Assembly: GCA_018304505.1 (NCBI GenBank)
Contig: JAGVWA010000019.1
Span: forward strand, 1 to 39,572
Direction of reading: 5' to 3'
Length of the DNA stretch: 39,572 nucleotides
Source of the DNA: Nanobdellati archaeon
GTDB lineage: Archaea; B1Sed10-29; JAGVWA01
Part shown: positions 12,192 through 39,572 of the stretch, piece by piece
Layout of the letters: each line of letters starts with the position of its first letter
Position numbering within the stretch: the stretch's first letter is position 1
Notes under the pieces: generated by a model
What the model was told of the DNA's origin: nothing
Seen by the model: the letters and a program-made list of their open reading frames with translations, nothing else
Databases searched by the model: none
Position numbers and translations under genes: made by a program

Positions 12192-12234
12192 AAGAAAACG
12201 CCGGGGCTTTTTATTGCTATTGATTTTGGCGCGC
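12192..12234. repeat. 43-bp perfect direct repeat, copy 1 (contains putative apgM TATA element)
   Basis: aagaaaacgccggggctttttattgctattgattttggcgcgc, identical to 12811-12853. Confidence 0.97.
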
Positions 12235-12235
12235 T

Positions 12236-12463: not shown

Positions 12464-12467
12464 TTCA

Positions 12468-12695
12468 TCATCTCCGTTTTAACAATCGCTCGAAATCCTC
12501 TTCAGTCAATCCTGCTTTTTTTATTGCAGCTTTAAGCAAGCCAATTTTAAGTTCTTTTGGGCCGGGTATGGTGATAATTTGCCCATTCGGCATCTTAATG
12601 TTAACATGATCACCTTTGCCTCCTCTTTCAACGCCTCCAGCCTTTATAAAAGCTTTTATCGCTTCTTTTCCTTTAATGTTCCTAAGCCAAGGCAA
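12468..12695 (-). CDS. hicA: HicA-family mRNA interferase toxin
   Basis: KGDH (catalytic His), ITIP..KELKIGLL.AIIK-type motif and AGLT.EDF..LL; TTG start preceded by SD GGTGA; lies upstream of hicB. Confidence 0.9.
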   Translation of the reverse strand: MPWLRNIKGKEAIKAFIKAGGVERGGKGDHVNIKMPNGQIITIPGPKELKIGLLKAAIKKAGLTEEDFERLLKRR

Positions 12696-12810
12696 TGGAA
12701 ATTCACCTGCTTTATAGTATTTGAGATCTTTATCTAATTCTCTCTATGAATGTATAAATACATTCCCTTTAGTTTACCCCAACTATTTTGGAAAGAGAGC
12801 CTAAGTTGAA

Positions 12811-12853
12811 AAGAAAACGCCGGGGCTTTTTATTGCTATTGATTTTGGCGCGC
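12811..12853. repeat. 43-bp perfect direct repeat, copy 2
   Basis: Identical to 12192-12234. Confidence 0.97.
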
Positions 12854-12865
12854 GTTGTACCGAAC

Positions 12866-13294
12866 TTACTCTATTGATCCCGCGATGCCGCAGATGCTGG
12901 TGCGCTCAATGTTGTTCACTAGCGACCTGTACTTCACAGCGACTTGGCCTGACACGTATTGGTCTGTTTCGCCAAGCCCGGGTATGCTGAAGAATTGCGT
13001 CTGTGACCCTGACGCGAGAACGTCATTTACTGAAATTGTCTGCGGCTCATTGCCTGTGTTGGCTGTAACGTCAACAACTACTATGCCCGCCTGCGCCAGG
13101 TTTGACAGCTTCAAATTCAGTGTCCCAGCCTTGTCGTAGTTCCAATCAACGATTTTGACTGTCTCGTCGCACAGTGAGTTGCCTGCCGGGGGCAGGTAGT
13201 AAGTGAAAAACCAATTGACAGAGAGGATGGCGATGGCTACTGTTATTATTGTGATGCTGGTCCTCTCAGGTAATCCAAATTCTTTTTTACTCAT
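12866..13294 (-). CDS. Small pilin-like membrane protein
   Basis: N-terminal TM helix, then a beta-sandwich pattern (C..VKIVD..LNLKLSN..GIVVVDV..V.VKY....GIAGSI) resembling archaeal pilin globular domains. ATGA overlap with the upstream gene. No clear class III cleavage site. Confidence 0.6.
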   Translation of the reverse strand: MSKKEFGLPERTSITIITVAIAILSVNWFFTYYLPPAGNSLCDETVKIVDWNYDKAGTLNLKLSNLAQAGIVVVDVTANTGNEPQTISVNDVLASGSQTQFFSIPGLGETDQYVSGQVAVKYRSLVNNIERTSICGIAGSIE

Positions 13295-14196
13295 AGTACT
13301 TCACATCCACATTCTGTTGTGCCTTCCAGCATTGACACGCTGAGGAAGCTGTTTGAGGTCTGCGGCAGGCTTACCTGCACTTCTCCAATGAGGTTTTCGC
13401 ATGACCCTGCTATGTTTAAGGTCGTGATTTCCGATGGCCCAATTACCTGTACCGGGGCCGAGAACGGCGCCTGGGCAAGGTTGATGGTTGTTAATATCTT
13501 GTTCACGTTGATTGGGCTCGTGGTTCTTGAAGCAATGTTGATGTCAAGGCTCGTGGTTTGCTCTGTAACCTCGTCGGTGTTTATGTTGCAGCTTGTAACA
13601 ATCAATTTGGGTAGCGCGAATTCGAAGCTCCTAACTAAGTCGTTGCTGTCCTCGAGCAGCTCTTCTTGCCCGATTTCATCGAAAACCGCAACATAGGTGC
13701 CCACGTCGTCAGTTACCAGCGTCGATATGACGAAGGTGGAGTTTGTGAGCTGCTCTATGTATGAGTACTGGTTTGACAACTCGTTGAACAGCGTCTCATT
13801 AAGCGTGGTGAACTGCTGCAGCTTTTGAGTTGCCTCGTCTTGCGATGTCACGACGGCTCCTGATTCCTTGACTATCATAAACGTTCTGTTGCTGTTCGTG
13901 GAATCCATACCTGCGATGAATTGAACCCCATTAAGAACCCATGCCTTTGCCTGGAAGCCGGGCACGGTGTCAACCAGCGTTCCGGGGTTCAGTGTTGTGG
14001 GCCTGTAGTCCGCATTGACAATGAGGTTGATGTAGTCGTCAAGCGTTTCTGCCTGGTATATCACCTGGCCTGTTATCGGCGACCTAGTCGTCAATACTGT
14101 TATAATGACTACTACGGTTAGGCCTAGCGCTATGCCTGTTAGGAGGGTTCTCTTGATTACGTCATTGCTTGTGCCTTTCACAGTCATCCTTTTCAC
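13291..14196 (-). CDS. Membrane-anchored protein with C-terminal pilin-like Ig domain
   Basis: Basic N-terminus, TM helix, ITGQVI motif and Cys-containing C-terminal beta domain; GTG start with SD AGGTGA just after the giant gene stop. Confidence 0.7.
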   Translation of the reverse strand: MKRMTVKGTSNDVIKRTLLTGIALGLTVVVIITVLTTRSPITGQVIYQAETLDDYINLIVNADYRPTTLNPGTLVDTVPGFQAKAWVLNGVQFIAGMDSTNSNRTFMIVKESGAVVTSQDEATQKLQQFTTLNETLFNELSNQYSYIEQLTNSTFVISTLVTDDVGTYVAVFDEIGQEELLEDSNDLVRSFEFALPKLIVTSCNINTDEVTEQTTSLDINIASRTTSPINVNKILTTINLAQAPFSAPVQVIGPSEITTLNIAGSCENLIGEVQVSLPQTSNSFLSVSMLEGTTECGCEVL

Positions 14197-14212
14197 TTGT
14201 CATTCACCTGTC

Positions 14213-17200
14213 TTAGTCGTCGTCATCGTCGTCGTCATCGTCATCGCCGCCTGCTGGTGGCGCTTTCTTGTACTTGCAGAAGCCATTGCTCTTGCACACG
14301 TCGACGTTGTAGCTGAGTCCATCGTCACAGTCTGCGTCTACTGAGCAGAACGGCGCGTCGATCTTGGCCTGTTTCTTGAGCTGCCTGATGATTTCGTGGA
14401 AGTCCTTTAGGAACCTCACGTTGTTGCTTGGGTCTTCGAAGGCCGTGTCGTCATCGTCCTCAACGTGGCACGCCTTCTTGGAGTTGCTCACGTCTTGGTC
14501 TATCAATGTGCTCATTATTATCATGTCGATGCGTTTTACCTGTCGCATGATGTCCTGCAATTGCTGCAAGTAACCGGCGAGCTGTGTCTTGCCCTTCTTG
14601 ATGGCCCTTGCTTCCCTTTCCTCTGCCTTGTGTATAGCCAGTATTGCGCTCTGGCAGTCCTTTTCTGTCTGGTGGCCAGCTGCCCTTAGCGAATCGATGC
14701 TGCCCATTGGCAATTGTACTTGCGATTCCAGGAACTCCTTCTCCATCTTTAGGCCTGCCTTTTCTACCTGCTCTATCTTGTTCCCCATGACCTTGAAGTC
14801 AGAGTGCTCCAGCGGCTTGACGTTGTTTAGGTTTATGGAGTTTGCCAATGCCACGAGGGCCAGTTTCTCTGCCACTAGGCCATTGGTACCGACTATTGTG
14901 ACTGTTGTTGTGTTTTCTGCTGGCTCTACTGGCGGCTCTATCTCGGCTGCGTTGGCTATCAGGTTTATGATGACGTTTTCAAAGTCATCAACGCTTGCCG
15001 TTACGGGCACTGTGGCTGACAGCGTTCCTGTAACCGTAGCGCCTGGGGCTATTGTCGGCAATGGCACTGAGGTGTTGGCGAAGCTTAACAATACCGATAC
15101 CGTGTCAGTGCTTAGTGTAGCAGTGCTGGTGTTGAACGCGCCGGTGTTCCTTACTTGTACTATAATGTTGAACGACTCGCCCGCAGCGTATGTCGAATTG
15201 TCAGTGAGCGGTGGGTGCAATGGAGCGACTGTTGGCGCTACTGTGATTGAGACTATCTCGAGCTGCACCTCGAATGCCACGGTGTATTCTATTGCGAAGC
15301 CCTCAGACACTGAGTCAGCTGAGTTGCCTGATGAGTCGAACACCTCGACTGTTACCGTGTGCGGCCCTAGTGTTGCTGTGTCAAGTAGCGTCAAGAGGCC
15401 GCTGAACGAGAACTCTGGCGAAGCGGGGTAATTGACGATCTGCTGCGTTGTTCCGAGGCTTGTGGTTGTTGTTACTACTGCCGTGTCGATGTCGAAGTTG
15501 TCGGTGAAGGCCCCAGTCAAGTTGAGTTGTGATCCAAAGACCACTGTGAATGTGCCGTTGAGTAGTGTGCTGGTTTCTGCCTGCAGGGCCAAGTCAACGA
15601 TCTCTGGGGCAATTGTGTCTTGCGCTGTTACTGTCGCTCCCTCGATAATGGTGTTGCCTTCGCTGTCGTTTGCAGTCACTGTTATGGCGTAGATGCCGAG
15701 CTCTGTTGTGTTTAATGCACAGGCTGCGCTGAAGGTGTCTTGCGTCCTGAGGTTTACGTCGGGCATTGTGTTGTCTGTGAATGAGCACAGCTGCACTGGG
15801 GCGCCGCCTGATGGTGCAACGTATGAAGCTGTTATTGCGTCTATGTCGTAGTTGTCTGTCACGTCAAGCTGTATGCTGCTTGCAGTGAACACTTCAACTG
15901 TTCCAGGGACTGGCGTTACTGTCACTACTGGCGCGATGCTGTCCCTTACTAGCACTGTGACGTTGACCCTGGCTTCATTTCCTGCTGCGTCTAGTATTAT
16001 GAGTTCTGCGTTGTAAAGGTCAGGGAAGAGTGTCTCGGTAAAGTCACCCTCGAAGTCTGCTTCCTCGCCGCCAGGTACTGTTCTGGAAGCGAACTCTGCC
16101 AATGTTACGATTTCGACTATGGTGCCGTTGCTGTTTGTTATGAAGGCCAAGCCCGTGTTGTTTAGGGCTATGTTGTCAAAGGCCGTGGCGTTGATCCTCG
16201 ATGTGTTGTAAACCTCGACTGGCGACTCTGCCTGCGCTGCCAGGATTTCTGGCGCTGTGGTGTCCTCTCCAAACACTGTCACCTCTGTTTCCACTATTGC
16301 GTCAGTCGTGAAGGTTCCGTCTGTGGCTGTGATTGTTATCTGGTAAGTTCCAGTGTCTGCGGTGCTGCCGATTTCGTCAGTGATGTTGCACTCATACGCC
16401 AAATTGACTGATGAGAAGGCTACTGGGGCTACTGATTGCTGGCACAGGCCGGTGAAGAGCGTGCCGTTGGGGTGCAGTACAGTGGTTTCGACTTGCGTCA
16501 ATTGGTAATTGTCTGAAACGCCTGCAAGTAGCGTAATTGTGTCATTCACAGTGTAGTTTTCAGCTAGCAGTATGCCAACGATTGTCGGCGCTGTTTGGTC
16601 TGCCACTGTGAAGGTTTCTGAAACGCTCACGTATGTTGGAACCGAGCCTTGGAAGCTGGCTTCCTGCGTCAACTTTATGTACCGTGGCGATGCGGGGTTC
16701 TTTATGTTAATGAATTCATTTCCAAAGAGTGTGAAGATGTGTGCCTTGCTGAAGAAGAACTGCACGCCTGCCGGTGTCGAAGTGGTGTTGGCTGCCTTTA
16801 CTCCCGTGAAGCCGATGCCGTTGCAGTTGCTGTTCGTCACATTCGGGAACGTGGAGTTCTTGAAATTCGCAACCAACGAATACGCGCCGCCAGAGAACGG
16901 CCTGCACTCAAACGCAAAGTTATTCGTTGCTGGGTCCACTGTTACGCGGAAGTCGTCCTCGCCGTCGCCGTTCAAGTCAACAATCCTCTGCGTGTCGCTT
17001 GTTGAACTTGGCTCGAAGAACAACAGGTAATTGGGGTTGGTGACTGTTGCCCTGGCTGCGAAGTCCCTGGACGTGGCGTAGAACGCTGGATTCAAGACTG
17101 AGTAGTCGTAGCTTGAATTGAAGGGGCTGTCGCCGCCGTTATAGGCTGAGACTGTCTTGCCTGCCTCGAGCTTAAACGTCAATGGGATTTGCTTGAGGGT

Positions 17201-20200
17201 TATGAATTCAGTTGCTGCTAGTGATTTGATGCCTATGTAATCCTTGTCGAACAGCGAGAATATTTTATTCCTGTTGAAGAAGATCTGTACGCCTGAGCCC
17301 GAGGCTGCCTTTATGCCTGTGAAGCCGATGCCGTTGCAGTTGCTGTTCGTGGCGTTCGGATATGTAGAGTTCTTGAAGTTCGCAATCAGCGAATACGCGC
17401 CGCCACTGAACGGCCTGCACTCAAACGCAAAGTTATTCGTTGCTGGATCTACAGTCAACCTGAAGTCGTCACTGCCGTCGGTGTTTATGTCAACCAACCT
17501 TACTGCGTCGGTGACTGTATTTGGCTGGAAGTAGATTACGTAGTTCTTGCTAGGCAAGCCTATGGTTCCAGCCAAGTTTATTCCAGTGTAACTTGCAGGA
17601 TCAATAATCGTGTAGTCATCTTGCGCCAAGGTGAGTGCCCCCTGTGTACCAGTGAATGTCGTCACTGAGCCTATCCTTAGGTCGAAGCCTTCAACTGGGA
17701 CTTCATCGTCAGTTGCGAACACCCGGGCGGTGTAGGTGCCTAGTTCAGCTGTCTGGGTAAATGGGCACGTGAAGTTCAATTCAGCTGCCTGGAATGCTAC
17801 AGGTCCAACATTGTCCTCGCATTGTTGTGTAAATGCTGTTACTGATGGCGTTATGAATTCGCCATACACCGAAGTGAGCTGATAGTTGTCTGAAACAAAT
17901 GCGGCTTCGTCAAGTGGCTCGTATATGTTTACTGTCTTGTTCAGCGGATTGAGGTTGAGTATTGAAAGTATTGCTGTTGGGTCGTCTCCTGGGAAGTCGA
18001 CTCCCTGTATTACTGGCAGCAGCGTGTCTTGTGCCTGGAATGTGGCGGTGTCAGTTGCTGATTGCCCGGTTTGGTCAACAGTTGTTACTGAGACTAAGTA
18101 TGCCCCTAGTTGAGATGTGTTGCTGAACGTTCCGACAAAGGTTGCCTGCGTGCTGCCTGCTGTGAAAGTCGGCGTTAATGGAATCACGCCTGCTAATGCG
18201 CCATTTGGCGCGAATACTGTAGCGGTTGCAGTGCCGACGGCGAAGTTGTCTGTCACGTTGGCGGTTATTGTCGTGCTGGTGTATATCTGGGTGTCGTCTG
18301 CGTCTATCGATTGTATCACCGGCGGCTGCAGGTCGACTGTGATATTGAAGACTTCGTCTTGTGCTGTTGATGGTGAATTGTCATTGTCAGTGGCAACTGC
18401 CCTCAAGTTGAATACCCCGCCTGTTGGAGGCACTATGATGCTCTTGAGCTTGATGTATGTTGTCGCTGCCTGTGATTTTATGCCAATGAAGTCGTTGCCG
18501 AACAGCAACAGGACCTTGGCCCGGTTCACAAAGAGCTCCATGCCATTGCCAGTTGCGCCCTTGACTCCAGTGAGGCCAACGGTGTTGCAGCTTGAGTCTG
18601 TTCTGGTTGGCCACGTTCCATTCTGGAAACCGGCCACTAGCTCGTATGATCCACCAGAGAGGTTCTTACATTCTATTGCAAAGTCTTGTGTAACAAAGTC
18701 AATAGTTATCCTTAGGTCATCTTGATTGTCTCCGTTCAAATCAATGAGCCTTACCTGATCTGATATCGAGCCCGGCTCGAAGAAGTTAACGTAGTTGTAA
18801 TTCGGAGAAGCTTGCCTTGTGGCGAAGTTCGTTCCTTGGTAGTTTGTCGGGTCAAGCACCGTGTAGTCGTCGCTGCTTACATATCCTGTTGTCAAACCCC
18901 TGCCGTTTCCGCCGTATTCCCTCAACATGAATTCATTAGCGCCTAAGGTAAAGCTTGGGTTCCAGCTGACGCTGTAAACATTGCCAGGCCCGGGTACTGT
19001 GTCTATGCCAATGCTCACAGGAACACCGTTGAATTGGAAGAACTCAACCTTGTTAATGCCTGATCCTGTGTCAGTTGCAACTGCGGTTACTGTGAATGGT
19101 ATGTCATCAGGGCCGAGTACTTGGTTGTTTACTGGGCTTGTCAATGTGACTTCTGGCGCCGTTGTGTCATCGTCTGTAATCAGTGTTGAGACTACACTTG
19201 AGAAGGTTGAGGCCTTGTCACCAGTGTGGTCGTTGTCGTTGTCTGTGACCTTTACTATCCAGTAGATTGTGTCCCCTTCCTTCGCGTCTCCGATGAATGA
19301 ACTCAATAATGTGGCAGTGCCTGAAATTATGTCAAGCTCGCCGTCATTGACCGTGTCTGAAACGCCCGGGTTGTTGAACGCAAAGTACAGCTTGGCTTCT
19401 GAGATGTCAGAGTTGCCTGTGAACTCGTCTGTGAATGAAACCGACACAAGGATATTTAGGTTTGATGCTGACTCATTGACAACTGCCGGCACGCTTAATG
19501 TCGGGCCCTGCGTGTCATCATCGGCTACTGTTAAGTCGGCAAATGCCATGGCTTGCTGCCAGAACGCGTCGCCTGAGAAGTTGGCGAAGATCGCATTACT
19601 GACCGTACCCGGGACCCTGCCTGCCAATGGAGCAGCTGGTGTGCACGCGAAGTCGCCTGTTGATGCGCTTGATGTTGTTGAGCATGTTTCGAGCGCCTCG
19701 AAAATGCTGTTGTAGTTAGTGTCAACGCCCTGCGACACACTGACAGACCTGAATTCGGCGTCGTCTGACTGTATGTTTCCGCTCAGTGCACAGGTTTGTG
19801 TTTCAGTGCATGTCTTGGAGTCGGCTGTTATTATTGTCTGCTCTGGGTCGACATTCAATGTACCGGTAGCCTGTGCTGCGGTGTAGAACGTGTTGGATAG
19901 TAAGTTTACTGTGATGCTGTAAGTGCCCTGTGCCAGTTGTATTGAGGCTGCTGGCTGACACGTGAATAGTCCCGAGACAATGTTTGCGTCGCACGTTTCT
20001 CCCACGCCCTGTAATGTATCGCCGTCAGCATCCACGAATACCCTTGCCTGCGCGGCCTGCGTCGGTGTTGGCCCGTCGTTTTCTTCTGCGCTTCCTGAAA
20101 CTGCCGGCGTTGGGTCACTGAACCTTGCTAGTACTGTATCGAGGCTTAAGAATAGCGTTTCCTTTGCAATCGTCAGCGTAGCGGTGTCGCTTGATGACGT

Positions 20201-32200: not shown

Positions 32201-34774
32201 ATGTAAGGTTCCCCCCGACCCTGTTGCAAGATATATCATTCCATCATAAGCAACTACTGCTGTTGGTGCTGAAGGGAGTTGCCCCCCGATAGGATTAATT
32301 TGAATTCCATCTGTATAAATAAATAGGGGGCTAGTCGTAAAAACTGCGGGTAATGCATACAAATCTCCATTAAAGACCATTAGATTATTAAGTGGTTGAA
32401 GTGAAGTGAATTCAGTTATCCAGGAACTAGAACCATCCCATCGCACAATGCTGGTTAGACCAAGACTATTATCTCTTGCTATTCCATATATCCTGCCTTT
32501 GAAAACAATTATTGATGTTAAGCCAGAAGAACCAACCTGCGACGCCTTTGCAAGCCACTGATTATTTACTTCATCAAATTCAAGCAGCTGGCCAGAACTA
32601 CCCGTAGAAGCATAAAGTTTTCCATTGTATAAAATCATTGAGGTGATTACTTCAGTTCCTGGGAAGCTTGGCAGCGTGTCTGCACGCTTCACCCACTGCG
32701 CGCCAGTTTCATCCCACTCTAATAGTTTGCCTCCGGGTAACGTTCCTCCATAGAGCTTTCCCTTAAACGAAACTAAAGACGTGATTTGCGACTGTGATTC
32801 AAGGCTGCCTGCCCGTTGTACCCACCCAACACCAGCAACGAATTCAAGCAAGTGGCCCACTGATGGGCTTGTGCCTGCGAACAGCCTGCCGTTATGAACA
32901 GCCATGGACCCGATAAGTTGGTCATTCAGGTATGCCGATGCTGCTTCTGTCCAAGCCGTGTCACCCTTGGTCCATTTAAGTAGTCGGCCCCCGTCAGAGG
33001 CTGCCCCTGCATAAATCGACCCATTGAATACAACCATTCTATTTATAGACACAGTATCAAATTTGCTAGCGACTTCTACATGATTTATGAAATAACCATC
33101 ATTGACGCCAAATTGTAATCTCTGTCCACCTTCAGATGCTGAGCCTATAAATCCCAAAGTCACGCCTTCATGCGCAGCAGTGGTCGAGTATGAAGTTAGT
33201 ATATCTCCAGCAGCATCATCATTTGGTAGATTTGGTTTTGCCCATACTTCCAAAGAGAAGGGCTCTGTGCCCATTGCCCAATCGCGCCCGTCACCGAAAT
33301 TCACGACATCATCAATACCATCAAGCAGTACGCCAAAGCCCCCGGCTTTACCAAAAACGCCGTTAGTGCTGCCAGTGGTGACACCATCATTAACGCGCTC
33401 TGAAGAATCGATAACCTGTTCCGTGCCGATGTCCTCGAAGTGCGCCGCCAGCAAGTGATCCCCAGAAACCTGCCAGTGCAGCGAGTTCCAGATTGCAGGT
33501 TCAATTGCGTCATGCACCCTCGATTCATACGTGCCTGTTGTTTGCCCAGAAACTAGCTGCAATTCACCTGTTGGCGTTAGTTCTGTATTTACAAATGTTC
33601 CGTTGAAATCACCAGCTTTCGTGTCAATGCTAAATGATGGGCCAACCAATGTTATGGCATTACTTGATTCCGGGTTATAAACATCTATTGTTCTTGACGT
33701 AAAATTCGAGAGCGGGAAAACAACTTCAAGTGTTGGGTTGGTTGATGGGGTTGCCCCGACAGCATCAATGATGTCTGCTTCACAATTGGCTACAATAAAA
33801 GGCCTCACAGCAGGATTTAGGACAAACCCCCCAGCTCCACCTATGACAATTACTACTGACCCACAAACGATTTCATAATTAGTAGTGCCAGCTGTCCTTA
33901 CAACGCTTAATTTAATTGAGGCATTGCCATCACCATTAAAATCAAGATATCTTACTGTGGCAGGCGCATTATTTATACCTGATAATGAGATGACAAAGTG
34001 CGGTGCAGTCCTTACTGTACCAAGTTCATGTATCCCCGCCCGATCCGTTCCCCTCCAGTTTGCTGGATCAGAAACGCCACTTTGAGTTACATAGTTTGCA
34101 AATGAGCTGAAATCAGCTGCATTTCCATCTTGTTCATCAACAACGAGTTCCCTCGTCAAGGTGTGATTGAAAAGGTTAGTGGTCTGGAACTCGATTTCTT
34201 TATATTCTGATGCTGACGCGAATTCAATGGTTGCGTAGTCGAAGTCCCTGTCTGGGGACGCGAAAACAACATCAGGGTTCGTAAGTGTGGCCCTCAACCT
34301 AACCTGGGTCACGCCGAGGTTGTTTAATTCTGCAACGCTCTGGCCGTTTCGCACGTCAGGAATGAGGACAGTTGTTCCAGTTGAGTCCATGATGTCTACT
34401 ACTACCGTGCCATTGTGAGGAACCCTAGTAATCTTGATTTTGTCCCAGAAGTTGTTTGCTGGAATGTCAATGAAGTCAGACATCACAACGCCCGCAGTAA
34501 CGCCTTGTTGCAGTGTTATGTGCGTCGGCAAATTCGGGTCTGTAACTATCGTGATGTTGCTCGATAAAGCAGAGTCGACCCTTGTTGGGTCTGCAAAGTT
34601 GTCACAGAAGCTGTTTGGATTGGGACAGTCCGGCAGTGGCCCGGTGATGAAACCAGTAAGCGCGAACAACGCCCCTGGGTTTGTCACTGTGAAGTAGCCC
34701 AATACAACAAGTAAGGCGATTACAAGCGTCATTGCTGTTAATTGCGTCTGGGTCTGTCCTTTTGTGCCGATCAT
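14213..34774 (-). CDS. 6853-aa giant surface adhesin with class III signal peptide and nested domains
   Basis: Uninterrupted 20.5-kb ORF starting TKG|QT plus a hydrophobic helix. Contains about 15 DxNxDG modules, 2 LamG domains each with a 7-blade propeller, TSP3 (DTDGDGIADPIDNCP), CARDB, multiple cadherin-like repeats (VTPVND.P), PKD (YTWNFGD) and Ig domains. Ends in a helical region, a Cys motif and poly-Asp. Confidence 0.92.
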   Translation of the reverse strand: MIGTKGQTQTQLTAMTLVIALLVVLGYFTVTNPGALFALTGFITGPLPDCPNPNSFCDNFADPTRVDSALSSNITIVTDPNLPTHITLQQGVTAGVVMSDFIDIPANNFWDKIKITRVPHNGTVVVDIMDSTGTTVLIPDVRNGQSVAELNNLGVTQVRLRATLTNPDVVFASPDRDFDYATIEFASASEYKEIEFQTTNLFNHTLTRELVVDEQDGNAADFSSFANYVTQSGVSDPANWRGTDRAGIHELGTVRTAPHFVISLSGINNAPATVRYLDFNGDGNASIKLSVVRTAGTTNYEIVCGSVVIVIGGAGGFVLNPAVRPFIVANCEADIIDAVGATPSTNPTLEVVFPLSNFTSRTIDVYNPESSNAITLVGPSFSIDTKAGDFNGTFVNTELTPTGELQLVSGQTTGTYESRVHDAIEPAIWNSLHWQVSGDHLLAAHFEDIGTEQVIDSSERVNDGVTTGSTNGVFGKAGGFGVLLDGIDDVVNFGDGRDWAMGTEPFSLEVWAKPNLPNDDAAGDILTSYSTTAAHEGVTLGFIGSASEGGQRLQFGVNDGYFINHVEVASKFDTVSINRMVVFNGSIYAGAASDGGRLLKWTKGDTAWTEAASAYLNDQLIGSMAVHNGRLFAGTSPSVGHLLEFVAGVGWVQRAGSLESQSQITSLVSFKGKLYGGTLPGGKLLEWDETGAQWVKRADTLPSFPGTEVITSMILYNGKLYASTGSSGQLLEFDEVNNQWLAKASQVGSSGLTSIIVFKGRIYGIARDNSLGLTSIVRWDGSSSWITEFTSLQPLNNLMVFNGDLYALPAVFTTSPLFIYTDGIQINPIGGQLPSAPTAVVAYDGMIYLATGSGGTLHSVGSGSVAMQDIPYTNTGMAHIVGVREATQLKLYVDGVLVDTSDSFLQGSLDLNQLTALGSTGQFVDYFDGILDEIKLHPRALSSAEVLERYSSGLQGFNDGLLDRNKVVTIGVRTCDDPQCSGEGYTQELTGSPGFMNLTENRYFQYKINFDSNNPSVSPKVHSVVARMGLPAAQVLEDVEQTFPFLLAAVDDEVLLDANASEYTAELNAYQSAFPQDNEAIFESWGNIEDGEFALFTGFSNYLNFFLEVNPGSRQTRGYDLNNDLVSDLAVTSRVVIGGTAAPTNFLVLNDRTPLTIDGLANEYTTQDNYTAEDILVFPWGTAKEYAAYDSVNNRMVIYLRGIEEETRFVSFFDPIENEPVEVLAITSDASQGQVIVDCQGTTIVDTDQAINSGTEPCLDVQVTAVVAPDNGVEVSINTTDLIAVTGRGFVVVNNIVISDESVSLVVPGETEYPAARFGFALPSLTSVAIDASDAEYVAELAPGSTSTLPAADITAGFWGDATDYAAYSSNMGEITVYLKALTGQAFRNFDLDADNVPDLKLGSFAGSSSEIDCVGEFVAFAPTAGAVSDTCRGVPIRYAIGSSSIEVAFKEVLLPVGQLLMTSQDSLFKVDLQTGLPVPSSASITCADNPSFANGELCAGHTINYITDGGAIEFKALGFSIGDAVRVSNPDSPKSINISLIGEQVVVTATQESVVLDGNGTENSTTIDQNVSDQENWPGNDTAVYDNTTEQLILFYELDGVLDFQLTDVEGELVIDGDETAGAEYDPGAASYVELTIPDDDIENWGASQSVDDRASYDSVSGKIGILLEAGTGDEIQRRIDLDGDGIEDLALFSNDTSGASAAYCKAGDASVSLITYDLASASITVDAVDTSEYTGAGINDTKTLLPFATDARLQDFAAFDPAGYIAVYADVTAFSNGPTETRRFDFDNDGTYDLHLTPRGSDLKVVFECPGSFSVTLGNMPLIGADAVCVTSGGASVPLHYRLSGGRGEFNLSTSALPGGTMTQTATNWNGQQIRLMSPGATQPLGAVELPSGINTCAGTTVDVAKTGAIIEVGLNSTFIKSGYVTVASEASAYAVRLLTPVATQNYLAHILNTIFAGAGDSSIDGEIDPETEYGPFPERDYVVSTLPFGEWPDWQGNDSASMAAYNALSNEIRLASITEGTVVYERRIDLDNDQEPDARWITNNIDTQNPVTTIQCLAPGELFTALTLAGVDISGSFECKGVTVTYATSAVKDVELGLKKSGATGYVVLTTPTSTRRIGLIPEGSFQPLALTTPEPPQTFEFAVSNTATSLLVDGVMNEPTEYPAYPDHDYLDGNLPLSDQGNWFSNEMLDFVVYDPAFSKIGLGYSIQDNAAPERLVDFNNDGTFDLYFSSYATTPLPADHILRSQISCLVPGSEFTDGGSFNLVTSVTNDVSGFFICGQVSVEYATEFGTDIELSLTAGPTTGFIVLGTNSSANKVKLIPAGATNSLALASETRDVSYPTLHFMSPDDKELEHYNVLMLQSTFTHFVANKDNLLKIDGNKTEYGGADEYVAGSIVSDPANWPGEDFVISDDAQDMVGIFVGSAGLSTLNSRLERRYDLNLDGTPDFTIVMIYRFGNIDAILRCGTYGDIVYWDGGMPISSIFSTMTMLYECNGFTIYDSHGPQGVEIGLVAGQLSTPITVSNPASANKIDLAYFANQPAPSAIFNFFTESSYGPINVDGVADFDEYVGGDYIKASVPPASLSSWDVASGTTDVASTDLNNDLIGIFSRVRNTVVERLIDFNEDAKPDLYYKLDGLCDGGICNGRVSATISCLVSGDDWSHTGTFGTTGNIQAFRGCGGVGIEYSSLLTGTSTSFKSFELVIKIDTWDSDSIFVGSNDTTQRIQLLKPIIQRTFKFGVKPSESPMELDGGFSSQEYGGEWQSDYLAIFDNDFERPQWGDTFEASAFDESTGKLAVYFEAGEGPSERFIDLDNDGISDMRLFTSVASTEFPGVINESEIQCLYPGQEFLDSNNGISQISGAFNCANVPIEYFSLSPIGESSAIEFTMDSTGNFGFVTVSAPTAVDVVSLVIPAAQDEEGYREIDADFDGFPELIIVYGSQRIYCTATGEFIFSDVSPDHGLGSAECGGLEVEFAVSDTGRSAELAIAKDSMTSNYVTVTNPDSTTSINVFLPEGVVPEPAPTTSQLIIPVNIETDYLPPALDFWELSWTLNDTDGDGIADPIDNCPDVFNPSQADSNGFQDGTGAGDACEEIPDVLVSAIQVLQNPVQRGNLANISITVSSIGNKAPGAFTVTITDQTESPAVIIDQRTVTFTNAIDSTAYTVQYDTTGKLDGSHTLRGFADSGNVVEELDEANNILTTTLTIEIPNTAPFFNGTIPTQNLIEDQVTPVTLLLSQFAFDAETASTDLFYTLVSNSNPTLVSAVFGVSCTANCKESVTGGLKIGIAQAEASGSSQLCVNVNDGFLTSAQQCFNVIVESVDDAPVISAIPLQTFVEDTVYTGLSLDNFVTDVDTAPSGLIWASTQPGNLTIVINSVPPHQVTVTPQANFFGTRIATFNVTDGTSFDEVDVTFNVTPVNDNPIIIGLPGSILLGEGENITLNLTQNVTDVEDLPQDVLWTVSNVDLVEAEFLDAGQVITPGSATDTTQGDFNQGTFSSTESTATGEVQLSTGQTTGTFTSRVIDAGSAAAWNTATWTALEPSSAGGGLTGGVLLAHMDDASGVITDSSGNSNNGVNNGATYSAPAQLGFGTAMSFDGIDDYIDFSDDPDFDFGTGTFTLEAWVNPDAAGDDNIGDIISKFDTAAKKGYHLTVLDNYGSSHSNKRNIEFGIDNNAPSTTLTKVADRFSASDTFMLALIDFNGSLYGTATNGAANSLFRWSGSAWVRAAGDYTGANELHSMAVHNNKLYAGTSGSDNLGHLLEWNGVDAWIPRVTTNLNAQQGIESMVSFNGRLFGATRPNARLFEWTGGSVWTQRAGTPAGVTTDQIESLAVYNGKLYGATVTTGKLLEWNETGSSWTERAPQITVGGAGQTINSIAVYNGKLYAAGRGVLLEWNGVNAWVNRTSQFPLETLLADLAVYNGRLYAAAVSNKKLLEWDEANSAWLDRGSPIGATVAIRPAKLTVHNGKLYVSTRQAALNDGAGALYEAKTGIEATNDVELSTGTWHHIVGVKDTSTLKLYIDGALVDTSDVFTASSFNLDNAVPLTVGKGTHDYYNGLMDEVIVYNRALTGTEVADRFTGGPASTSGGFDTNLTMQFRSCNDAVCSGESFGSEFSTSPQSIAVVPDNRYFQYRANLVTSDSAETPQLLDATIDFETSLPANSGTQLKITVPIGVSGGEDEITLTAIDTDGGNDTENMTIIIGVANSPPTIDPIPSQNATEDVVFNLNVGPFVSDPDNDDLTITSNSVYQISSAILCASPYSSCVLSFLYPEGVLADTFNVTVNDGEFVVFRTVNVTVTPVNDGPVIDPALPDVSFPEDSFDDTLVLDNFVTDADNTKAELIWTFSGNTNIFVSIGSAAQQHKVNFTAAQDFNGQETITFVVRDPENLNDTDTIIVTVTVSNDAPQAQVIPPITFAEDTVFTGLDLDGFVTDIDTPLSALVWTAAPVANLSVFINASTHGVTITPDADFNGIRTIVFTVNDSEFTDSTSVLVNVTPVNDAPTLAAIPDIDVNESSNTTTNFRSVDLAPFANDVDNDALTFSAVGSTNVNVNITGTILTVWGDPLFIGTETIQVAVTDTSNEQASRNVNVNVLDVNTPPTITSVTITPADPRTTDTLTCVATATDLDVGDTISFAYEWEQTLANGTQIIRSESTPTINSAETKKNEIWQCTATPFDSFPSQGTSATAVTTILNSAPVAVAESDAVTVQVGDSLGFSSANSPDADLDTLFYTWNFGDSTSFGPTTSTGVAHTYTSTGSKTVVLNVSDLEASDTDSLTINVVKEGTTMTANDANCVFSDSCLLSATLQEDDGPAVVGETITLTAGTQSCNAVTDGAGFASCSFNVSQAPGSATITASFAGTANYTSSSDTATLTIAKETLFLSLDTVLARFSDPTPAVSGSAEENDGPTPTQAAQARVFVDADGDTLQGVGETCDANIVSGLFTCQPAASIQLAQGTYSITVNLLSNTFYTAAQATGTLNVDPEQTIITADSKTCTETQTCALSGNIQSDDAEFRSVSVSQGVDTNYNSIFEALETCSTTSSASTGDFACTPAAPLAGRVPGTVSNAIFANFSGDAFWQQAMAFADLTVADDDTQGPTLSVPAVVNESASNLNILVSVSFTDEFTGNSDISEAKLYFAFNNPGVSDTVNDGELDIISGTATLLSSFIGDAKEGDTIYWIVKVTDNDNDHTGDKASTFSSVVSTLITDDDTTAPEVTLTSPVNNQVLGPDDIPFTVTAVATDTGSGINKVEFFQFNGVPVSIGIDTVPGPGNVYSVSWNPSFTLGANEFMLREYGGNGRGLTTGYVSSDDYTVLDPTNYQGTNFATRQASPNYNYVNFFEPGSISDQVRLIDLNGDNQDDLRITIDFVTQDFAIECKNLSGGSYELVAGFQNGTWPTRTDSSCNTVGLTGVKGATGNGMELFVNRAKVLLLFGNDFIGIKSQAATTYIKLKSIIVPPTGGVFNLRAVATDNDNSPSTAQDEVFNITVDLQPPVIQSIDADDTQIYTSTTITANVTDNFAVGTATATVFAPNGALAGVIPLTPTFTAGSTQATFVGTFSNTSQLGAYLVSVTTVDQTGQSATDTATFQAQDTLLPVIQGVDFPGDDPTAILSILNLNPLNKTVNIYEPLDEAAFVSDNYQLTSVYGEFITPSVTAFTQQCEDNVGPVAFQAAELNFTCPFTQTAELGTYTARVFATDDEVPVEGFDLRIGSVTTFTGTQGALTLAQDDYTIIDPASYTGINLAGTIGLPSKNYVIYFQPNTVTDAVRLVDINTDGSDDFRLTVDPATNNFAFECRPFSGGAYSLIANFKNSTYPNATNSNCNGIGFTGIKAASGSGVQIFFNRNKIFSLFDKDYIGIKSLAATEFITLKQIPLTFKLEAGKTVSAYNGGDSPFNSSYDYSVLNPAFYATSRDFAARATVTNPNYLLFFEPSSTSDTQRIVDLNGDGEDDFRVTVDPATNNFAFECRPFSGGAYSLVANFKNSTFPNVTNSNCNGIGFTGVKAANTTSTPAGVQFFFSKAHIFTLFGNEFINIKNPASPRYIKLTQEASFQGSVPTYVSVSETFTVADQTAPTIVGILLAENYTVNDTITLLAGVSDNYQLTQVETTVLHPNGTLFTGLCQQSVAPVAFSSVNLAYECNITDEIGSTADTGTYQITITATDGTFTTDAIVETEVTVFGEDTTAPEILAAQAESPVEVYNTSRINATAFDNIALNNTGLAFITNSNGTIVEIVTLAEFASRTVPGGEEADFEGDFTETLFPDLYNAELIILDAAGNEARVNVTVLVRDSIAPVVTVTPVPGTVEVFTASSIQLDVTDNYDIDAITASYVAPSGGAPVQLCSFTDNTMPDVNLRTQDTFSAACALNTTELGIYAITVTANDSEGNTIIEGATVTAQDTIAPEIVDLALQAETSTLLNGTFTVVFGSQLNLTGAFTDNFDIDTAVVTTTTSLGTTQQIVNYPASPEFSFSGLLTLLDTATLGPHTVTVEVFDSSGNSADSVSEGFAIEYTVAFEVQLEIVSITVAPTVAPLHPPLTDNSTYAAGESFNIIVQVRNTGAFNTSTATLSTDTVSVLLSFANTSVPLPTIAPGATVTGTLSATVPVTASVDDFENVIINLIANAAEIEPPVEPAENTTTVTIVGTNGLVAEKLALVALANSINLNNVKPLEHSDFKVMGNKIEQVEKAGLKMEKEFLESQVQLPMGSIDSLRAAGHQTEKDCQSAILAIHKAEEREARAIKKGKTQLAGYLQQLQDIMRQVKRIDMIIMSTLIDQDVSNSKKACHVEDDDDTAFEDPSNNVRFLKDFHEIIRQLKKQAKIDAPFCSVDADCDDGLSYNVDVCKSNGFCKYKKAPPAGGDDDDDDDDDD
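14216..14245 (-). repeat. (GAY)n trinucleotide run encoding the poly-Asp C-terminus
   Basis: About ten consecutive GAC/GAT codons before the stop. Confidence 0.9.
16791..17470. repeat. Recent intragenic tandem duplication, 513-bp offset
   Basis: Identical blocks 16806-16837 = 17319-17350 (32 bp) and 16895-16933 = 17408-17446 (39 bp). Confidence 0.9.
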
Positions 34775-34816
34775 GGTTTTGCCCCATTGTTATTATTCAT
34801 GGTAAATCAACATGCC

Positions 34817-34824
34817 TATTTAAA
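34817..34824 (-). promoter_or_regulatory. Putative TATA box (TTTAAATA) for the giant gene
   Basis: About 45 nt upstream of ATG 34774; the same TTTAAATAG occurs upstream of the 1334-aa gene. Confidence 0.5.
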
Positions 34825-34829
34825 GTTAT

Positions 34830-35207
34830 TTATGGTAAGTTTATCACGGTCTCGATTAAGTTGCTTACGCCGATTGTGGCGTTGTGTGTTAATGACTCGC
34901 GGGTGATGAATGCCTCGATGTCGTTGTTCACGTTCACCTTCAACACCACCCCTCTTTCAAGTGCCAGCCTGCCGCATGATTCCGCGATGCCGAACGCCAT
35001 TGTCCGGTTTGCTTGTGACAGGCAGATTGCCTGCGCTGACAGCACGCTGGTGGTCAGCTGCATGTCGCCGAAGCCGTCATTGTCAAGGTCAATGTACCTT
35101 GTCTGCTCGCTGGTTGTGCCCCTTCCAAGGAATATCACTGTCTCGCTCGTAGAGAATCGCTGTACAGCCCTGTTAATTCCAGGATATGGACCGAAGTCTG
35201 CGGGCAA
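34830..35207 (-). pseudogene. Out-of-frame ninth module of the 1334-aa gene (frameshifted C-terminal fragment)
   Basis: Encodes the same module (YPGINRA..RYIDLDNDGFGDM..C..C..IEAFI) without its N-terminal part; overlaps the upstream ORF end in the +1 frame; no signal peptide. Confidence 0.75.
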
Positions 35208-38200
35208 ACGCCGGCTTGCTGAGCAGGAATTGGGTTCCGCCTTGTTTTCTTGGCCCGCTTGGTGAGCTTGCTAGTAGCGATTTCGAGACCCGCACAGGCT
35301 CAATAGAGTCCTGTATCGATATTTCGAATGTGAAGAACGATGGCGATGCAGTAAAGGCGTTTACGGGTTTTCCTTTGCACGTGACGTTTGCCCCATTGGG
35401 CAGCGGCGTCCTTATTATCGTGAGGCCGTCGTCTGTGAGGCAGTTCATGCCGTTGTTTACTGAAAGCTCGATGTCTGCCAATGCGTCGTTGTCAATGTCA
35501 ATGAAGCGCGCTGTCTGTGATGACGACGAATAGTCCCAGAACAGGAAGACCTTGTCCACTAGGAGTGAGAATGCGGCCAGGTTTGTGCCGTCGAACGCCG
35601 ACTCTGTGTCGTTTACTGTATAAGTGTCAAACGCCGGGCTGTATTCAATGCCCTGCCCGTCAGCAACTAGGTTTGCGCGCACCTTTAAGTCGAATGGTAT
35701 ATCAACTCCCGCGAACTCCTGTGGAACGAGGTTTATGAAACCCGTAGCCAGCCCGCCCTTGACAGAGACGAAGTTGCTGCCTATTACTTGGAGGTCGCTG
35801 AAGAAGATTTCAATGGTAGCTTCTGGGTTGGCGGGTGTAACTACGGTTGAAACCCTGACGCCATTGCATGATGCTCCAGTGTAAGGCGCGCCGTTGCAGA
35901 GGAAGTTTATCGAGGAACCTGTTGAAACCATTTCGAAATCAATTGCGCCATTTTGGTCAAGGTCTATTGAACGCTTGTCATCCCCAAAGCCAATGGCGGC
36001 ACTCCAGAAAATGAAGATGTTGTTTGTTGTCGAGTCCTGCGCTGCGAAGTTGGTTCCAAAGTAGTTAGCTGGGTCCTTGTCCGTGTAAACGTCATCTGGT
36101 GCTATGAATTGCGCTTGGCCTCCAAACAAGCTCAATGAGGGGGCCTTTCTTAGAACGTGCGTAAACTCAGGAACAGGGCCTGCTGGTGCTGTTGATAGCT
36201 TAACCTTGTTTGCCGATGCCGGGTTACTCATTATGACAAAGTCCTGCGGCAACTGGCTTTTTGCAATGCCTACTTCCAAGGCACCCGGCGGCGTCGCGGT
36301 AGTTATTGCTACGCCGGCGCACGTTCCTGAGCCGAATATCTGCGTGCTTGTCGGTAAGCACGTTACCGTACTCATTACGGGATCAACACGCAACTCAAGC
36401 TCCGGCGTGCCGTCGTTGTTTAAATCGATGCGCCGTATCACGATTGAAGTGGGCGCCAGGGCGATTCCAATGGTGTCGCCTGTTGAGTAGAATGCTGCGA
36501 AGTCAGTGCCGAACCACTTTAGCGGATCTGGGATTATGGCCCCAACAGTGTAATCATCACTGGGCTCATATTCAATAAGTGAGCCATCAATTGTCACTAC
36601 CTTCGTTGCCAAGTTGAAGTCAAAGGTGGCTCCTGGCTCTGGAGCTGACAAGAGGTTGATTATGTTTGAAGATGAAGGTGTCGTGATAGCAACGTAATTT
36701 GAATTGAAAACGCCAGTAAGCTGGTCTATGGACAGGGCCAGTTCTACTCTGTTGCCGCTGACTGAGTAGCCAAAGCTCATGCCGCCACAACCCGCGAAGC
36801 TTGTTACTTGACTAGAGCCTGTGAATATGATCATTGATTCCGGTATGCAGAAAACCTCAGCATCACTGAAGGGGATAGATTTGATCCTTAGTTCAGGCGT
36901 GCCATCGTGATTGAAATCGATGTTCCGCTCTGAAGTACTTGGCCCTGACTCCAGATACACCTGTATCGCGTCTTCCAATGAGTTCAGCGCTGCAAGGTCT
37001 GTACCATCCCATGACGGCGCGTCCGGGGCTACTGATGCGTAATCATCAGAACTCAGGGCGTATCCATTTGTCGTGGCGTCTAGCGCAACTGGCCTTGTAA
37101 AGAGGCTGAAGTTGAACTCGTTTCCAGTTGGTGCCGGCCCGCCTGTGGGTTCGATCAGGTGCACTGCGTTCTGTGACACAGCTGCATCTGCGGATACCGT
37201 GATGCCGTTTGGCAGGAAGGCTGTGTCAAACGCAACTTCAACTGCGCCACCTGATTTTGCAAACATTATGCTAGTACCTGAACAGCTGTCAGGCGATGAG
37301 AACATGATTCTACCCGAGTCAGGTTCACACTTTAACGTGATATCAAATGGAATGGCTGCGCCGTCTCCTGTTAATTCAATAGAAACTACAACTGTATCTG
37401 GCGTACCACCGTAATTTATTTTCCTGAACCTGTCGTTCGGGTTGCCGCTGTAGTACAGCGCTATATCATCATTAGGGAAGTCAAATGCCGCATAGTCCTG
37501 CGACAGCCACGCGGCGGCGTCTGGTAATACCAATGTGTAATCATCTGATGCCGTATATTCTGTCGTGGCCGCATCGAGCGTTACAACCCTCGCGGCAAGC
37601 GTGTGGTTTAGCACTACTTGGCCAGGGGCTGCTCCGGGCCTGATAAGCTTTACCTTGTTGCTCGATGAGGGATTTGAAACCAAGATGAAGCTTCCTGGCA
37701 GCGTTACTGAAGTTAATTTCATTTCAATGATGTTGCTGTTCTGCTGGAAAAATACCTGGACGCCGGCGCATGAGTCTCCAGACATGCTGAAGCCAGGCGA
37801 TGCTGGGCAGCTAACTGAAGAGGAGCCTATAGAATCTGAAAAGAGTGATAAGTCATCTGCGTTATCGTTGTTGAAATCGACGCCCCTCATTTTAGCCCCA
37901 TCAACGGACTGGAAGAACATGAATACGTCTCCAGATGTGGCGTCTGACGCTGCGAACTCCTCGTGTCCAGGTGTAACTCCCGCCCAATCCATTGCGTCTG
38001 GCACAACTGTATAATACCGGTCGCCCGCATCATAGTCCCCTGGTGTGGCATCAAGGGATAGTGATTTTTCCACAAGCGTGAAATCGAATGTCGCCCCTGG
38101 GGCCCCAGCGCCACTTGCCTGCAATGTCAAAATCTCCGCAGATGATGGTGTCGAAAGTTTTACAAAGTCGAATGGCAACGTTGCCCTGTCAAGGAACACC

Positions 38201-39177
38201 TCAACTGATGCCCCTGCTAGCGAATATCTAACTATTGTACCCGCACATGGGTTCCCTGAAATAAAAAATGTATCCGATGGGCATGAGACCTGCCCCCCAA
38301 ATGTGAAATCCGAGATTATAGCAAAATCATAAGTTCCATCATTGTTGAAATCAACCCGCCTCTCGACAGTCGATGCGCCGCCATTGATGAACATCATTAT
38401 GTCCCCGGTCGCGGTGCCCTCTGCTGCAAAGTCAATGCCACCCGTCCATCCTACAAAATCAGATGCGGCCTGCGTGAAAGTGTCATCTGGAGAGAGGTAT
38501 TCTGATGACAATCCGTCTAGTGCCCCTGTTCTCATGTTCAGGTTGAACGTGCTAGTACCACCGCCGGCTGCTGCTGTTTTTAATTGTATCCTGTCATTGC
38601 TAGGGTCAGCCGGGTTTGTCACTGTTACGAAATCCGCGCCATACGCGCTCTGGATACTTGCCCGATCTATTAGTACTTCGACGCCGCTTGAGATCTGCAT
38701 TTCTACTGTCACACCGCCACAAGTATTGGTGCCTGGAGTCAATACGGTTATTAAAGCGCCGTCTTCGCACCGTGCCTCTGTAATAAATGATGCTGTGTCC
38801 TGCACAAGTCTTAGCTTGGTGCTTGAGCTTGCGCCGAATTCAACAATGCGCACATCCGAACCGGGTGATGAAAGGAAAATCGCGACCTTGTTGCTCGCCG
38901 GAACATTGGCCGCCCTGTCAGTAGCCGTCCACGCTGCGGGGTTTGACACACTGGCTGCATAATTGTCTTGAGGCTGGTATTCAAAAGGTGATCCATCAAG
39001 GCTTACTGGCCTGTCATTAAGCGTGAATACTATCGGGGTCTGGAAAAAAATGCTGGTGAAGAAACCGCTGAGCGGATTCGGGGATGTTCCGAAAAGCAGT
39101 GACGCGATGATGATTACTGATAAAACAGCTGTTGCCGCCACAATAATTGGTTGTGCTTGCCCTTTTTTTCCAGTCAT
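35173..39177 (-). CDS. 1334-aa class III signal peptide protein made of 8 tandem DxNxDG modules
   Basis: MTGKKG|QA plus a hydrophobic helix; eight ~150-165-aa modules separated by Pro/Gly/Ala linkers; SD-like GGAG upstream. Confidence 0.9.
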   Translation of the reverse strand: MTGKKGQAQPIIVAATAVLSVIIIASLLFGTSPNPLSGFFTSIFFQTPIVFTLNDRPVSLDGSPFEYQPQDNYAASVSNPAAWTATDRAANVPASNKVAIFLSSPGSDVRIVEFGASSSTKLRLVQDTASFITEARCEDGALITVLTPGTNTCGGVTVEMQISSGVEVLIDRASIQSAYGADFVTVTNPADPSNDRIQLKTAAAGGGTSTFNLNMRTGALDGLSSEYLSPDDTFTQAASDFVGWTGGIDFAAEGTATGDIMMFINGGASTVERRVDFNNDGTYDFAIISDFTFGGQVSCPSDTFFISGNPCAGTIVRYSLAGASVEVFLDRATLPFDFVKLSTPSSAEILTLQASGAGAPGATFDFTLVEKSLSLDATPGDYDAGDRYYTVVPDAMDWAGVTPGHEEFAASDATSGDVFMFFQSVDGAKMRGVDFNNDNADDLSLFSDSIGSSSVSCPASPGFSMSGDSCAGVQVFFQQNSNIIEMKLTSVTLPGSFILVSNPSSSNKVKLIRPGAAPGQVVLNHTLAARVVTLDAATTEYTASDDYTLVLPDAAAWLSQDYAAFDFPNDDIALYYSGNPNDRFRKINYGGTPDTVVVSIELTGDGAAIPFDITLKCEPDSGRIMFSSPDSCSGTSIMFAKSGGAVEVAFDTAFLPNGITVSADAAVSQNAVHLIEPTGGPAPTGNEFNFSLFTRPVALDATTNGYALSSDDYASVAPDAPSWDGTDLAALNSLEDAIQVYLESGPSTSERNIDFNHDGTPELRIKSIPFSDAEVFCIPESMIIFTGSSQVTSFAGCGGMSFGYSVSGNRVELALSIDQLTGVFNSNYVAITTPSSSNIINLLSAPEPGATFDFNLATKVVTIDGSLIEYEPSDDYTVGAIIPDPLKWFGTDFAAFYSTGDTIGIALAPTSIVIRRIDLNNDGTPELELRVDPVMSTVTCLPTSTQIFGSGTCAGVAITTATPPGALEVGIAKSQLPQDFVIMSNPASANKVKLSTAPAGPVPEFTHVLRKAPSLSLFGGQAQFIAPDDVYTDKDPANYFGTNFAAQDSTTNNIFIFWSAAIGFGDDKRSIDLDQNGAIDFEMVSTGSSINFLCNGAPYTGASCNGVRVSTVVTPANPEATIEIFFSDLQVIGSNFVSVKGGLATGFINLVPQEFAGVDIPFDLKVRANLVADGQGIEYSPAFDTYTVNDTESAFDGTNLAAFSLLVDKVFLFWDYSSSSQTARFIDIDNDALADIELSVNNGMNCLTDDGLTIIRTPLPNGANVTCKGKPVNAFTASPSFFTFEISIQDSIEPVRVSKSLLASSPSGPRKQGGTQFLLSKPAFARRLRSISWN

Positions 39178-39277: not shown

Positions 39278-39478
39278 GTTTTGCCGGCTAGATTATTTCA
39301 AATTCTGCAGGCCCGCTAACTGGGGAGTAAGCAGAAATCGATTTTTCGTTGTATGGGTACGCGATAATGAAACGAATTTTGGCTGGCTTCACAGCATTGC
39401 CCGCGCAACTGACACGCCGTGTGCTCTTTTTTATCAACACGCAGTCTTGCTCAATCATTACTCACCCAACCAAGTTTA

Positions 39479-39494
39479 AACTGGTTGCAACCAG
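39479..39494. promoter_or_regulatory. 14-bp perfect palindrome related to the 10760 palindrome
   Basis: aa-ctggttgcaaccag versus aa-ctagttgcaactag. Confidence 0.5.
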
Positions 39495-39572
39495 CGAATG
39501 TTGCAAAATCTATTTATTCTAGTTTGAGCAAAATAAAAGCATGGATAACAAAATATTCGACGAAACGAACAG

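Follow-up and report, generated by a model that had tools for sequence, protein, structure and literature searches.

Two giant proteins with prepilin-like leaders and a self-nesting repeat domain in a Nanobdellati archaeon

The giant proteins and their repeat domain

The stretch of DNA analysed in the present study, called the window below, is 39,572 nt long and makes up the entire contig C4 of the genome (G000; 917 kb, 21 contigs, 92.8% complete) of a Nanobdellati archaeon, the sole species of its own family within the archaeal phylum set that we examined (31 genomes, 0.3-1.3 Mb). Four open reading frames (ORFs) of 1334, 6853, 301 and 142 amino acids (aa), all on the minus strand, form a locus that accounts for 2.9% of the genome. 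The first two encode giant proteins, A and G, which both carry a prepilin-like leader and many copies of one repeat domain, and the preliminary description of this stretch had presented the four co-directional genes as a giant adhesin system displayed on a type IV pilus. At least half of the sampled words of the window are present in three groundwater metagenome runs and one soil metagenome run, the latter possibly the origin of this DNA; no RNA run was found among the sequencing runs listed as carrying window words.

Protein A (34830..39177) has a true length of 1483 aa (156.5 kDa) and consists of a leader and helix (39091..39177) followed by nine tandem repeats of about 155 aa. It is truncated in the window because 104 nt are missing at 35207, and it therefore appears there as a 1334-aa ORF (35173-39177), whose frame ends in a tail overlapping a 125-aa ORF (34830-35207) that holds one more repeat. 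At 35207 a contig of run X1, which may be the source sample, is longer than the window by a net 104 nt, and in run X2, which comes under another study code, 82 loose letters occupy the same position; two other assemblies, which may come from the same material as the window, read through this position (P0067, with 1483 aa and nine repeats, and P0065). The gap is an assembly deletion, and a programmed frameshift or a pseudogene is ruled out by the X1 and X2 sequences together with the full-length proteins in the other assemblies. The preliminary description had put the two giants at about 150 and 700 kDa; the mass of G is 727.5 kDa. Repeats 1-8 of A (35248..39036) are two-cysteine, Asp-rich, CBM9/DOMON-like domains, of which repeat 6 (36178-36630) was folded by modelling. 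Over the first repeats, at 38510-38827, the contigs of X1, X3 and X4 all disagree with the window in 13 substitutions lying in two clusters, which are either consensus errors or a strain variant.

Protein G (14213..34774; 6853 aa, pI 4.05, 70 Cys, 89 N-glycosylation sequons) takes up 2.2% of the genome on its own. One gap-free contig spans 19600-34774, and in another assembly the protein has equal length with 2 differences. The leader and its hydrophobic helix (34640..34774) are followed by a first whole repeat (33620..34177; aa ~200-385), by module 1 (31685..33619; aa ~386-1030), a LamG/ConA-like domain with a propeller-like insert of about 300 aa, and by a cluster of nested repeats (25739..31651; aa 1042-3012). 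Next come a TSP3 repeat, a CARDB domain and cadherin-like Ig domains, two of them whole and a third represented by its first half (24380..25615), and module 2 (22325..24331; aa ~3482-4150) places a split LamG between the halves of a cadherin-like domain. A stalk of cadherin-like/Big_9 (tandem-95), PKD and further Ig-like domains (18935..22255) leads to three more whole repeats (16658..18934; aa 5281-5446 and 5696-6039) and to the C-terminal part (14213..16600), where four Ig-like domains are followed by a charged stretch that is probably helical, then by a small Cys-rich motif and finally by a tail of poly-Asp. The ectodomain families (LamG twice, cadherin/Ig-like, PKD, CARDB and TSP3) bear out the adhesin-like character that had been suggested. 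The far C-terminal region (14213-14887) gave no family match and contains no membrane anchor; a sequence search with the C-terminus returned two matches at E 0.0016. This charged, Cys-rich and poly-Asp region could serve in docking or oligomerisation.

The nesting in G was examined with two profiles, made separately from the beginning and from the end of the repeat and scanned across the protein, and each of the two found 15 places. Twelve pairs are contiguous, and it was these that built the profile; the other three, which had no part in it, are split and match at complementary profile positions. Split repeat alpha (aa 1042-1134 and 1494-1538) encloses two whole repeats. Split repeat beta (aa 1551-1598, profile positions 8-58, and aa 2923-3012, positions 65-157) encloses about 1320 residues, which hold five whole repeats and split repeat gamma (aa 1604-1711, positions 3-101, and aa 1894-1944, positions 111-161), and gamma in turn encloses one whole repeat. 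G consequently holds three levels of one domain inside itself. The same split-domain architecture is seen in the second LamG, which a stretch of some 320 residues, weakly matching a propeller, divides at profile positions 111/118; modules 1 and 2 share 36% identity over 683 aa. For the cadherin-like domain around module 2, the first half is recognised at an independent E-value of 5e-7 and the second half only at 0.004. The Ig-like domain before the last two repeats stops at 93 of its 107 profile positions, and no profile detected its missing last strand; self-BLAST of the whole protein returned the self match only. It is the depth of self-nesting that is unusual here, the split-domain principle itself being already known.

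The repeat is characterised by a conserved cysteine pair and Asp-rich loops, and it reaches up to 15 copies per chain. Mean pairwise identity among the repeats is only 23%, and the aromatic and Arg positions are still kept, with Tyr21, Tyr27 and Trp39 among the conserved residues. In CBM9 the sugar is clamped by two aromatic residues. None of 22 repeats found a Pfam model at E<=1, including those of CBM9 and DOMON; the PDB sequence search gave no CBM9/DOMON chain at E<=1, and the ESM Atlas gave no usable match. In structure comparison with CBM9/DOMON-like domains (1i82, 2ivf_C, 4jpq, 4zel, 7b04_C), identity is 8-12%; the repeat is shorter than these, and differs from them in its conserved cysteine pair, its multiple copies and its self-nesting. 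DOMON domains that bind heme ligate it through conserved Met and His/Lys residues; for the repeat this role was rejected, as no column of 29 rows contains more than five His or three Met. The repeat would probably bind sugars.

A search of 1.84 billion representative sequences with the repeat profile gave 64 matches, eight of which were inspected; the remainder were assessed from the matched stretch, short in most cases, and from a re-scan with a second profile. P0001, P0002 and P0053 are proteins of this archaeon itself or almost identical to them, and a genuine relative is P0047, part of which is identical to a protein of genome G006; five more inspected matches were rejected as FG-GAP-like, DxNxDG or unrelated repeats. 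Apart from other assemblies, word-based searches yielded just P0047 and one FG-GAP protein. No copy of the repeat came up in three other phyla, represented by 401, 1 and 17 genomes, or in 5 further genomes, a set with no positive control inside it, and a single-protein search in 40 relatives gave one weak match (G009, E 3.6e-4) that the profile did not confirm. No description of the repeat or of the locus was found in the open literature searched, and the repeat family is regarded here as undescribed. Both in this genome and in relatives, repeat-bearing cargo is exported via other signals as well, so that its presence does not by itself imply a pilus. Repeat-bearing proteins of G006 and G010 (L031:1026-5243, L032:2549-6367, L033:8700-10688) have in common a C-terminal SAPG[YM]-helix-basic tail, which by eye resembles an archaeosortase signal; G000 has one exosortase-family gene (PF09721), on contig C9.

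Leaders, small proteins and pilus machinery

As had been described, A begins with MTGKKG/QAQPI and G with MIGTKG/QTQTQ (the slash marks the candidate cleavage site), each with KG/Q-[TA] ahead of one hydrophobic helix, and neither has a C-terminal anchor: the maximum Kyte-Doolittle values in the last 60 windows are 0.89 and 0.22, and no hydrophobic segment is present. A has Pro at +4 and Ile at +5, G has a polar QTQTQ start with Gln at +5, and both have Gln at +1, as EppA substrates do, and Pro at +27 followed by L[TS]GF (LSGF in A, LTGF in G). By our own pattern, modelled on that of FlaFind, both show a class III-like motif, with a basic-Gly/Ala cleavage site directly before the helix. In our own ORF set, [KR]GQ occurs within the first 20 aa of 17 of the 169 genes with an N-terminal helix and of 2 of the 465 without one, and its appearance in two adjacent genes is therefore no matter of chance.

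Among 222 N-terminal-helix genes, the [KR]G motif occurs in 52, of which 18 show the Glu at +5 that is absent from both giants. The pilin family PF04021 was found at 13 places in the genome (E<=0.1), none on C4, and the N-termini of A and G did not match it. On a helix matrix built from 17 of the genome's own Q+1/E+5 proteins (leave-one-out range 5.8-67.9 bits), the leader of A scored 8.6 bits (rank 4/204) and that of G -9.6 bits (rank 85/204); by these scores A has a degenerate pilin-type helix and G a poor one. Assembly of the giants into a filament, as originally proposed, is unproven.

The two small genes follow G. The 301-aa ORF (13291..14196; 298 aa from the ATG at 14187) encodes an N-anchored membrane protein with ITGQ after its helix, and the 142-aa ORF (12866..13294) an N-anchored protein with a helix and a seven-stranded Ig-like sandwich. 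These two share an ATGA overlap. The giants are not tightly coupled to each other, the end of A and the start of G being 55 nt apart, with an AT-rich stretch in between that looks TATA-like by eye. Structure comparison hinted, weakly, at a pilin-like shape for the 142-aa protein alone. The 142-aa model found an archaeal pilin as its best Foldseek row (8fk7, a weak E 7.7e-3) and two more pilins at ranks 4 and 8, and BLASTP showed no similarity between the 142-aa protein and the C19 pilin; for the 301-aa protein the ESM Atlas gave only leads below 0.9. Neither has a class III leader: the 301-aa N-terminus, KG/TSNDVIKR, puts charged residues ahead of the helix, and the 142-aa protein has no [KR][GA] site. 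They are probably accessory surface partners of A and G rather than prepilins. An [ILVM][TS]G[FQ]-type motif stands just after the helix in A, G and the 301-aa protein, three of only five such cases among the 222 helix genes, and is possibly a separate sorting or packing signal.

That no peptidase or assembly ATPase lies in the window was confirmed, since PF01478, the pilus ATPase and the platform families had no match within C4. Elsewhere the genome has two A24 prepilin peptidases (PF01478 over the cut-off, on C5 and C9), nine T2SSE matches (eight over the cut-off) and ten T2SSF matches, which amount to a complete type IV filament machinery. For a pil ATPase the nearest records came from unclassified archaea, Ca. 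Forterrea and methanogens, and with pelota no relative was found. The processing by PibD/FlaK that had been assumed probably names the wrong type of peptidase. In Methanococcus maripaludis, as outlined in PMC4371748, EppA requires Gln at +1 and its substrates carry Glu at +5, while FlaK refuses precursors with Gln at +1; the peptidase acting on A and G would thus be EppA-like. Against EppA, the C5 peptidase gave no match. The locus, moreover, is not in the pil operon and is not conserved among the relatives examined; the 301-aa gene occurs in none of the 30 other genomes of the phylum.

A better candidate for a giant pilin than either A or G is a 2383-aa protein on C9 (G000:C9:74741-81892; L008:8742-15893), the gene of which lies directly behind the prepilin peptidase in the pil operon. 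It has a canonical Q+1/E+5 leader (RG/QLSLE), two PGF-pre-PGF domains, a LamG and weak copies of the repeat. In the relative G022, a protein no shorter than 6586 aa is encoded on contig C40 (L107:1-19758, L108:7716-8537). It has a Glu-less KA/QARVI start, four LamG domains and three DUF2341 stretches, and its gene lies behind an RG/QIRVT gene, close to what looks by eye like a MoxR/vWA-like cluster; DUF2341 proteins have been proposed as system 1 tip adhesins, as set out in PMC4858521.

Proposed anchored adhesins and competing readings

Our tentative first choice, which we would put a little short of even, is that A and G are giant acidic membrane-anchored adhesins, trimmed at KG/Q, that attach through multivalent glycan binding to a host or surface and stand beside the pili. 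Both would be exported by Sec, with the N-terminal helix remaining in the membrane as the sole anchor, and one of the two A24 peptidases, of an EppA-like type adapted to Gln at +1, would probably trim the six-residue basic leader after KG. The degenerate helix, lacking Glu at +5 and in G having a polar start, would keep them unpolymerised next to the pili. Calcium and disulfides may fold the ectodomains. G would then be a branched, multivalent glycan-binding tree, with an Ig stalk and with heads made of the CBM9-like repeats and the two LamG/propeller modules, and A a compact array of nine units; glycosylated surfaces of hosts or particles would be the most likely target of both.

A and G resemble the Epd pilins of M. 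maripaludis (EppA substrates, system 1) in their short basic leader, KG/Q site, Gln at +1 and hydrophobic helix, and the genome encodes many pilins of this kind and, in a pil operon, a peptidase weakly similar to EppA; they differ from Epd pilins in lacking Glu at +5 and a PF04021 match, in being 10-45 times the typical pilin size and in lying outside the pil operon. Like PilB and PilC of Streptococcus sanguinis, they put a class III-type N-terminus on adhesive, ConA-like cargo, and A shares with PilA of that species a Glu5-less leader with Pro4, according to the account in PMC9934059; PilC as characterised there has 53 kDa, a leader of the canonical type and a pilin moiety, whereas A and G have 157 and 728 kDa and A leaves no space for a pilin head. 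A class III leader on non-pilin cargo is also known from the Sulfolobus bindosome proteins (as presented in PMC4371748 and PMC13705601), which are ABC (ATP-binding cassette) substrate-binding proteins, as opposed to a giant repeat array in which we found no ABC domain.

For the body of G, a parallel is AhLap of Aeromonas hydrophila, an RTX (repeats-in-toxin) adhesin. According to PMC12077191, the modules that bud from split domains in RTX adhesins are those that bind ligands, and one insert may sit within another; G has the same Ig stalk, the same modules budding from split domains and the same insert within an insert. It is unlike AhLap in being archaeal, in depending on an N-terminal helix instead of type I secretion, and in having one domain type nested in itself three deep over much of the chain. 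Another counterpart is the SPEARE-like SVXNc_0300 (9409 aa), likewise a giant surface protein of a DPANN archaeon with Ig-like and propeller domains. The SPEARE-like proteins of nanohaloarchaea, for which host binding has been proposed, are reported with a Sec signal, a VirB4-like ATPase domain and a neighbouring ATPase (PMC10266531); unlike them, neither G nor its flanking ORFs matched any ATPase family. By analogy, the leader of A and G might work in the modular-pilin or bindosome manner and the body in that of a split-domain fibrillar adhesin, and we consider the two proteins more likely to be processed membrane anchors than pilus components.

Several observations weigh against anchored glycan-binding adhesins. 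The model of A repeat 6 reaches a best fold score below 8 against CBM9/DOMON-like structures, Foldseek gave no match for it at E<=0.001, and the CBM9 link may be a shared arrangement only. The 8.6 bits of A fall within the low range of true pilins, and some Q+1 proteins in the genome's own pilin clusters also lack Glu at +5. Many archaeal pilins are said in PMC4371748 to do without this residue, and tip-capping subunits without Glu5 are described in PMC9934059 and PMC10191384. Finally, the C9 peptidase matches EppA at 29 bits, compared with a cut-off of 450.

The strongest competitor, which we regard as unlikely, is that A and G are modular minor pilins initiating and capping a type IV filament, the loss of Glu at +5 marking tip subunits and the small proteins serving as adaptors. 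The KG/Q motif, the eight ATPases and ten platform matches, the weak repeat copies in the canonical pilin of the pil operon, the 8fk7 row of the 142-aa model and the PilA precedent all speak for it, and pilin genes are usually scattered in Nanobdellati, as are type IV filament genes in DPANN archaea (so PMC13705601 indicates). Opposed to it are the helix scores, the lack of a PF04021 match and the leaderless small proteins. A bolder form, in which G is a 728-kDa tree-shaped lectin initiating and capping an archaeal type IV filament and a distinct Gln+1, Glu-less leader class in DPANN archaea mounts large arrays of the self-nested CBM9-like domain on pilus tips, strikes us as improbable; if it were true, each repeat would read a different host glycan, and host choice could be tested from single repeats.

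It is also rather unlikely, in our judgement, that KG/Q is a vestige, or belongs to another N-terminal class defined by the helix and L[TS]G[FQ], with the giants being uncleaved signal anchors or released by signal peptidase I. The post-helix motif, present in three of the four locus proteins and in the 301-aa protein even without a valid class III site, favours this view. Both giants and the two adjacent G022 genes, however, have [KR][GA]Q right before the helix, a placement that would be difficult to account for if recognition by the peptidase had not been selected. Least probable of all seems a coat, protective or spacing in function and directed against viruses, predators or wrong partners, built of repeats acting as calcium-stiffened structural spacers: the Asp-rich loops, the strongly acidic pI, the sequons of G, the modest fold similarity and the CBM9 copies that bind none of the natural carbohydrates tested (those covered in PMC8280721) would agree with it, but the repeats are highly diverged and yet keep their aromatic and Arg positions, and they bud from split domains with LamG modules alongside instead of extending the stalk.

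Returning to the anchored adhesins, what is new is the repeat, its nesting and the size; large class III proteins are an idea already known, as proteins of well over 1000 aa with such leaders were predicted long ago (see PMC4371748). Published examples from DPANN archaea include giants of 8880-9409 aa as well as surface proteins resembling lectins (PMC10266531; 10.1101/2023.10.27.564410), and archaeal proteins above 10,000 aa are rare by the account in 10.1101/2023.11.21.568195. Host recognition and attachment by DPANN archaea is an open question, for which the candidates to date are mostly LamG and Ig proteins. To these the locus adds a confidently modelled repeat domain in single units of about 155 aa, which can be expressed and tested on glycan arrays, and it offers a clean test of whether prepilin peptidases generally anchor giant non-pilin proteins.

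Neighbouring features of the contig

Directly behind the 142-aa gene there is a HicA (12468-12695) and HicB (12236-12463) toxin-antitoxin pair, within 12186-12856, flanked by two 52-nt direct repeats that are 94% identical, and it resembles an inserted cassette. A second pair of surface proteins on the contig is found at 3006-10589, where the gene for a secreted protein of 2003 aa (macroglobulin-like/Ig domains, 83 sequons) is followed by that for a 518-aa CARDB and PGF-pre-PGF protein with a C-terminal helix.

An element of about 35 bp, GTTTAAAC..GTTGCAAAA, occurs in 14 copies in G000 (one in the window at 39474-39572 and 13 more), as compared with 0-1 copies in five shuffles. It lies mostly 30-45 nt upstream of an ATG; among the genes that it precedes are toxin-antitoxin-like ones, a small pilin gene on C21 and, on C6 and C7, large surface genes. 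It is probably an operator or a mobile end. The final 99 nt of the window (39474-39572) are identical to the end of C16 and begin a divergent gene that is cut by the contig end.

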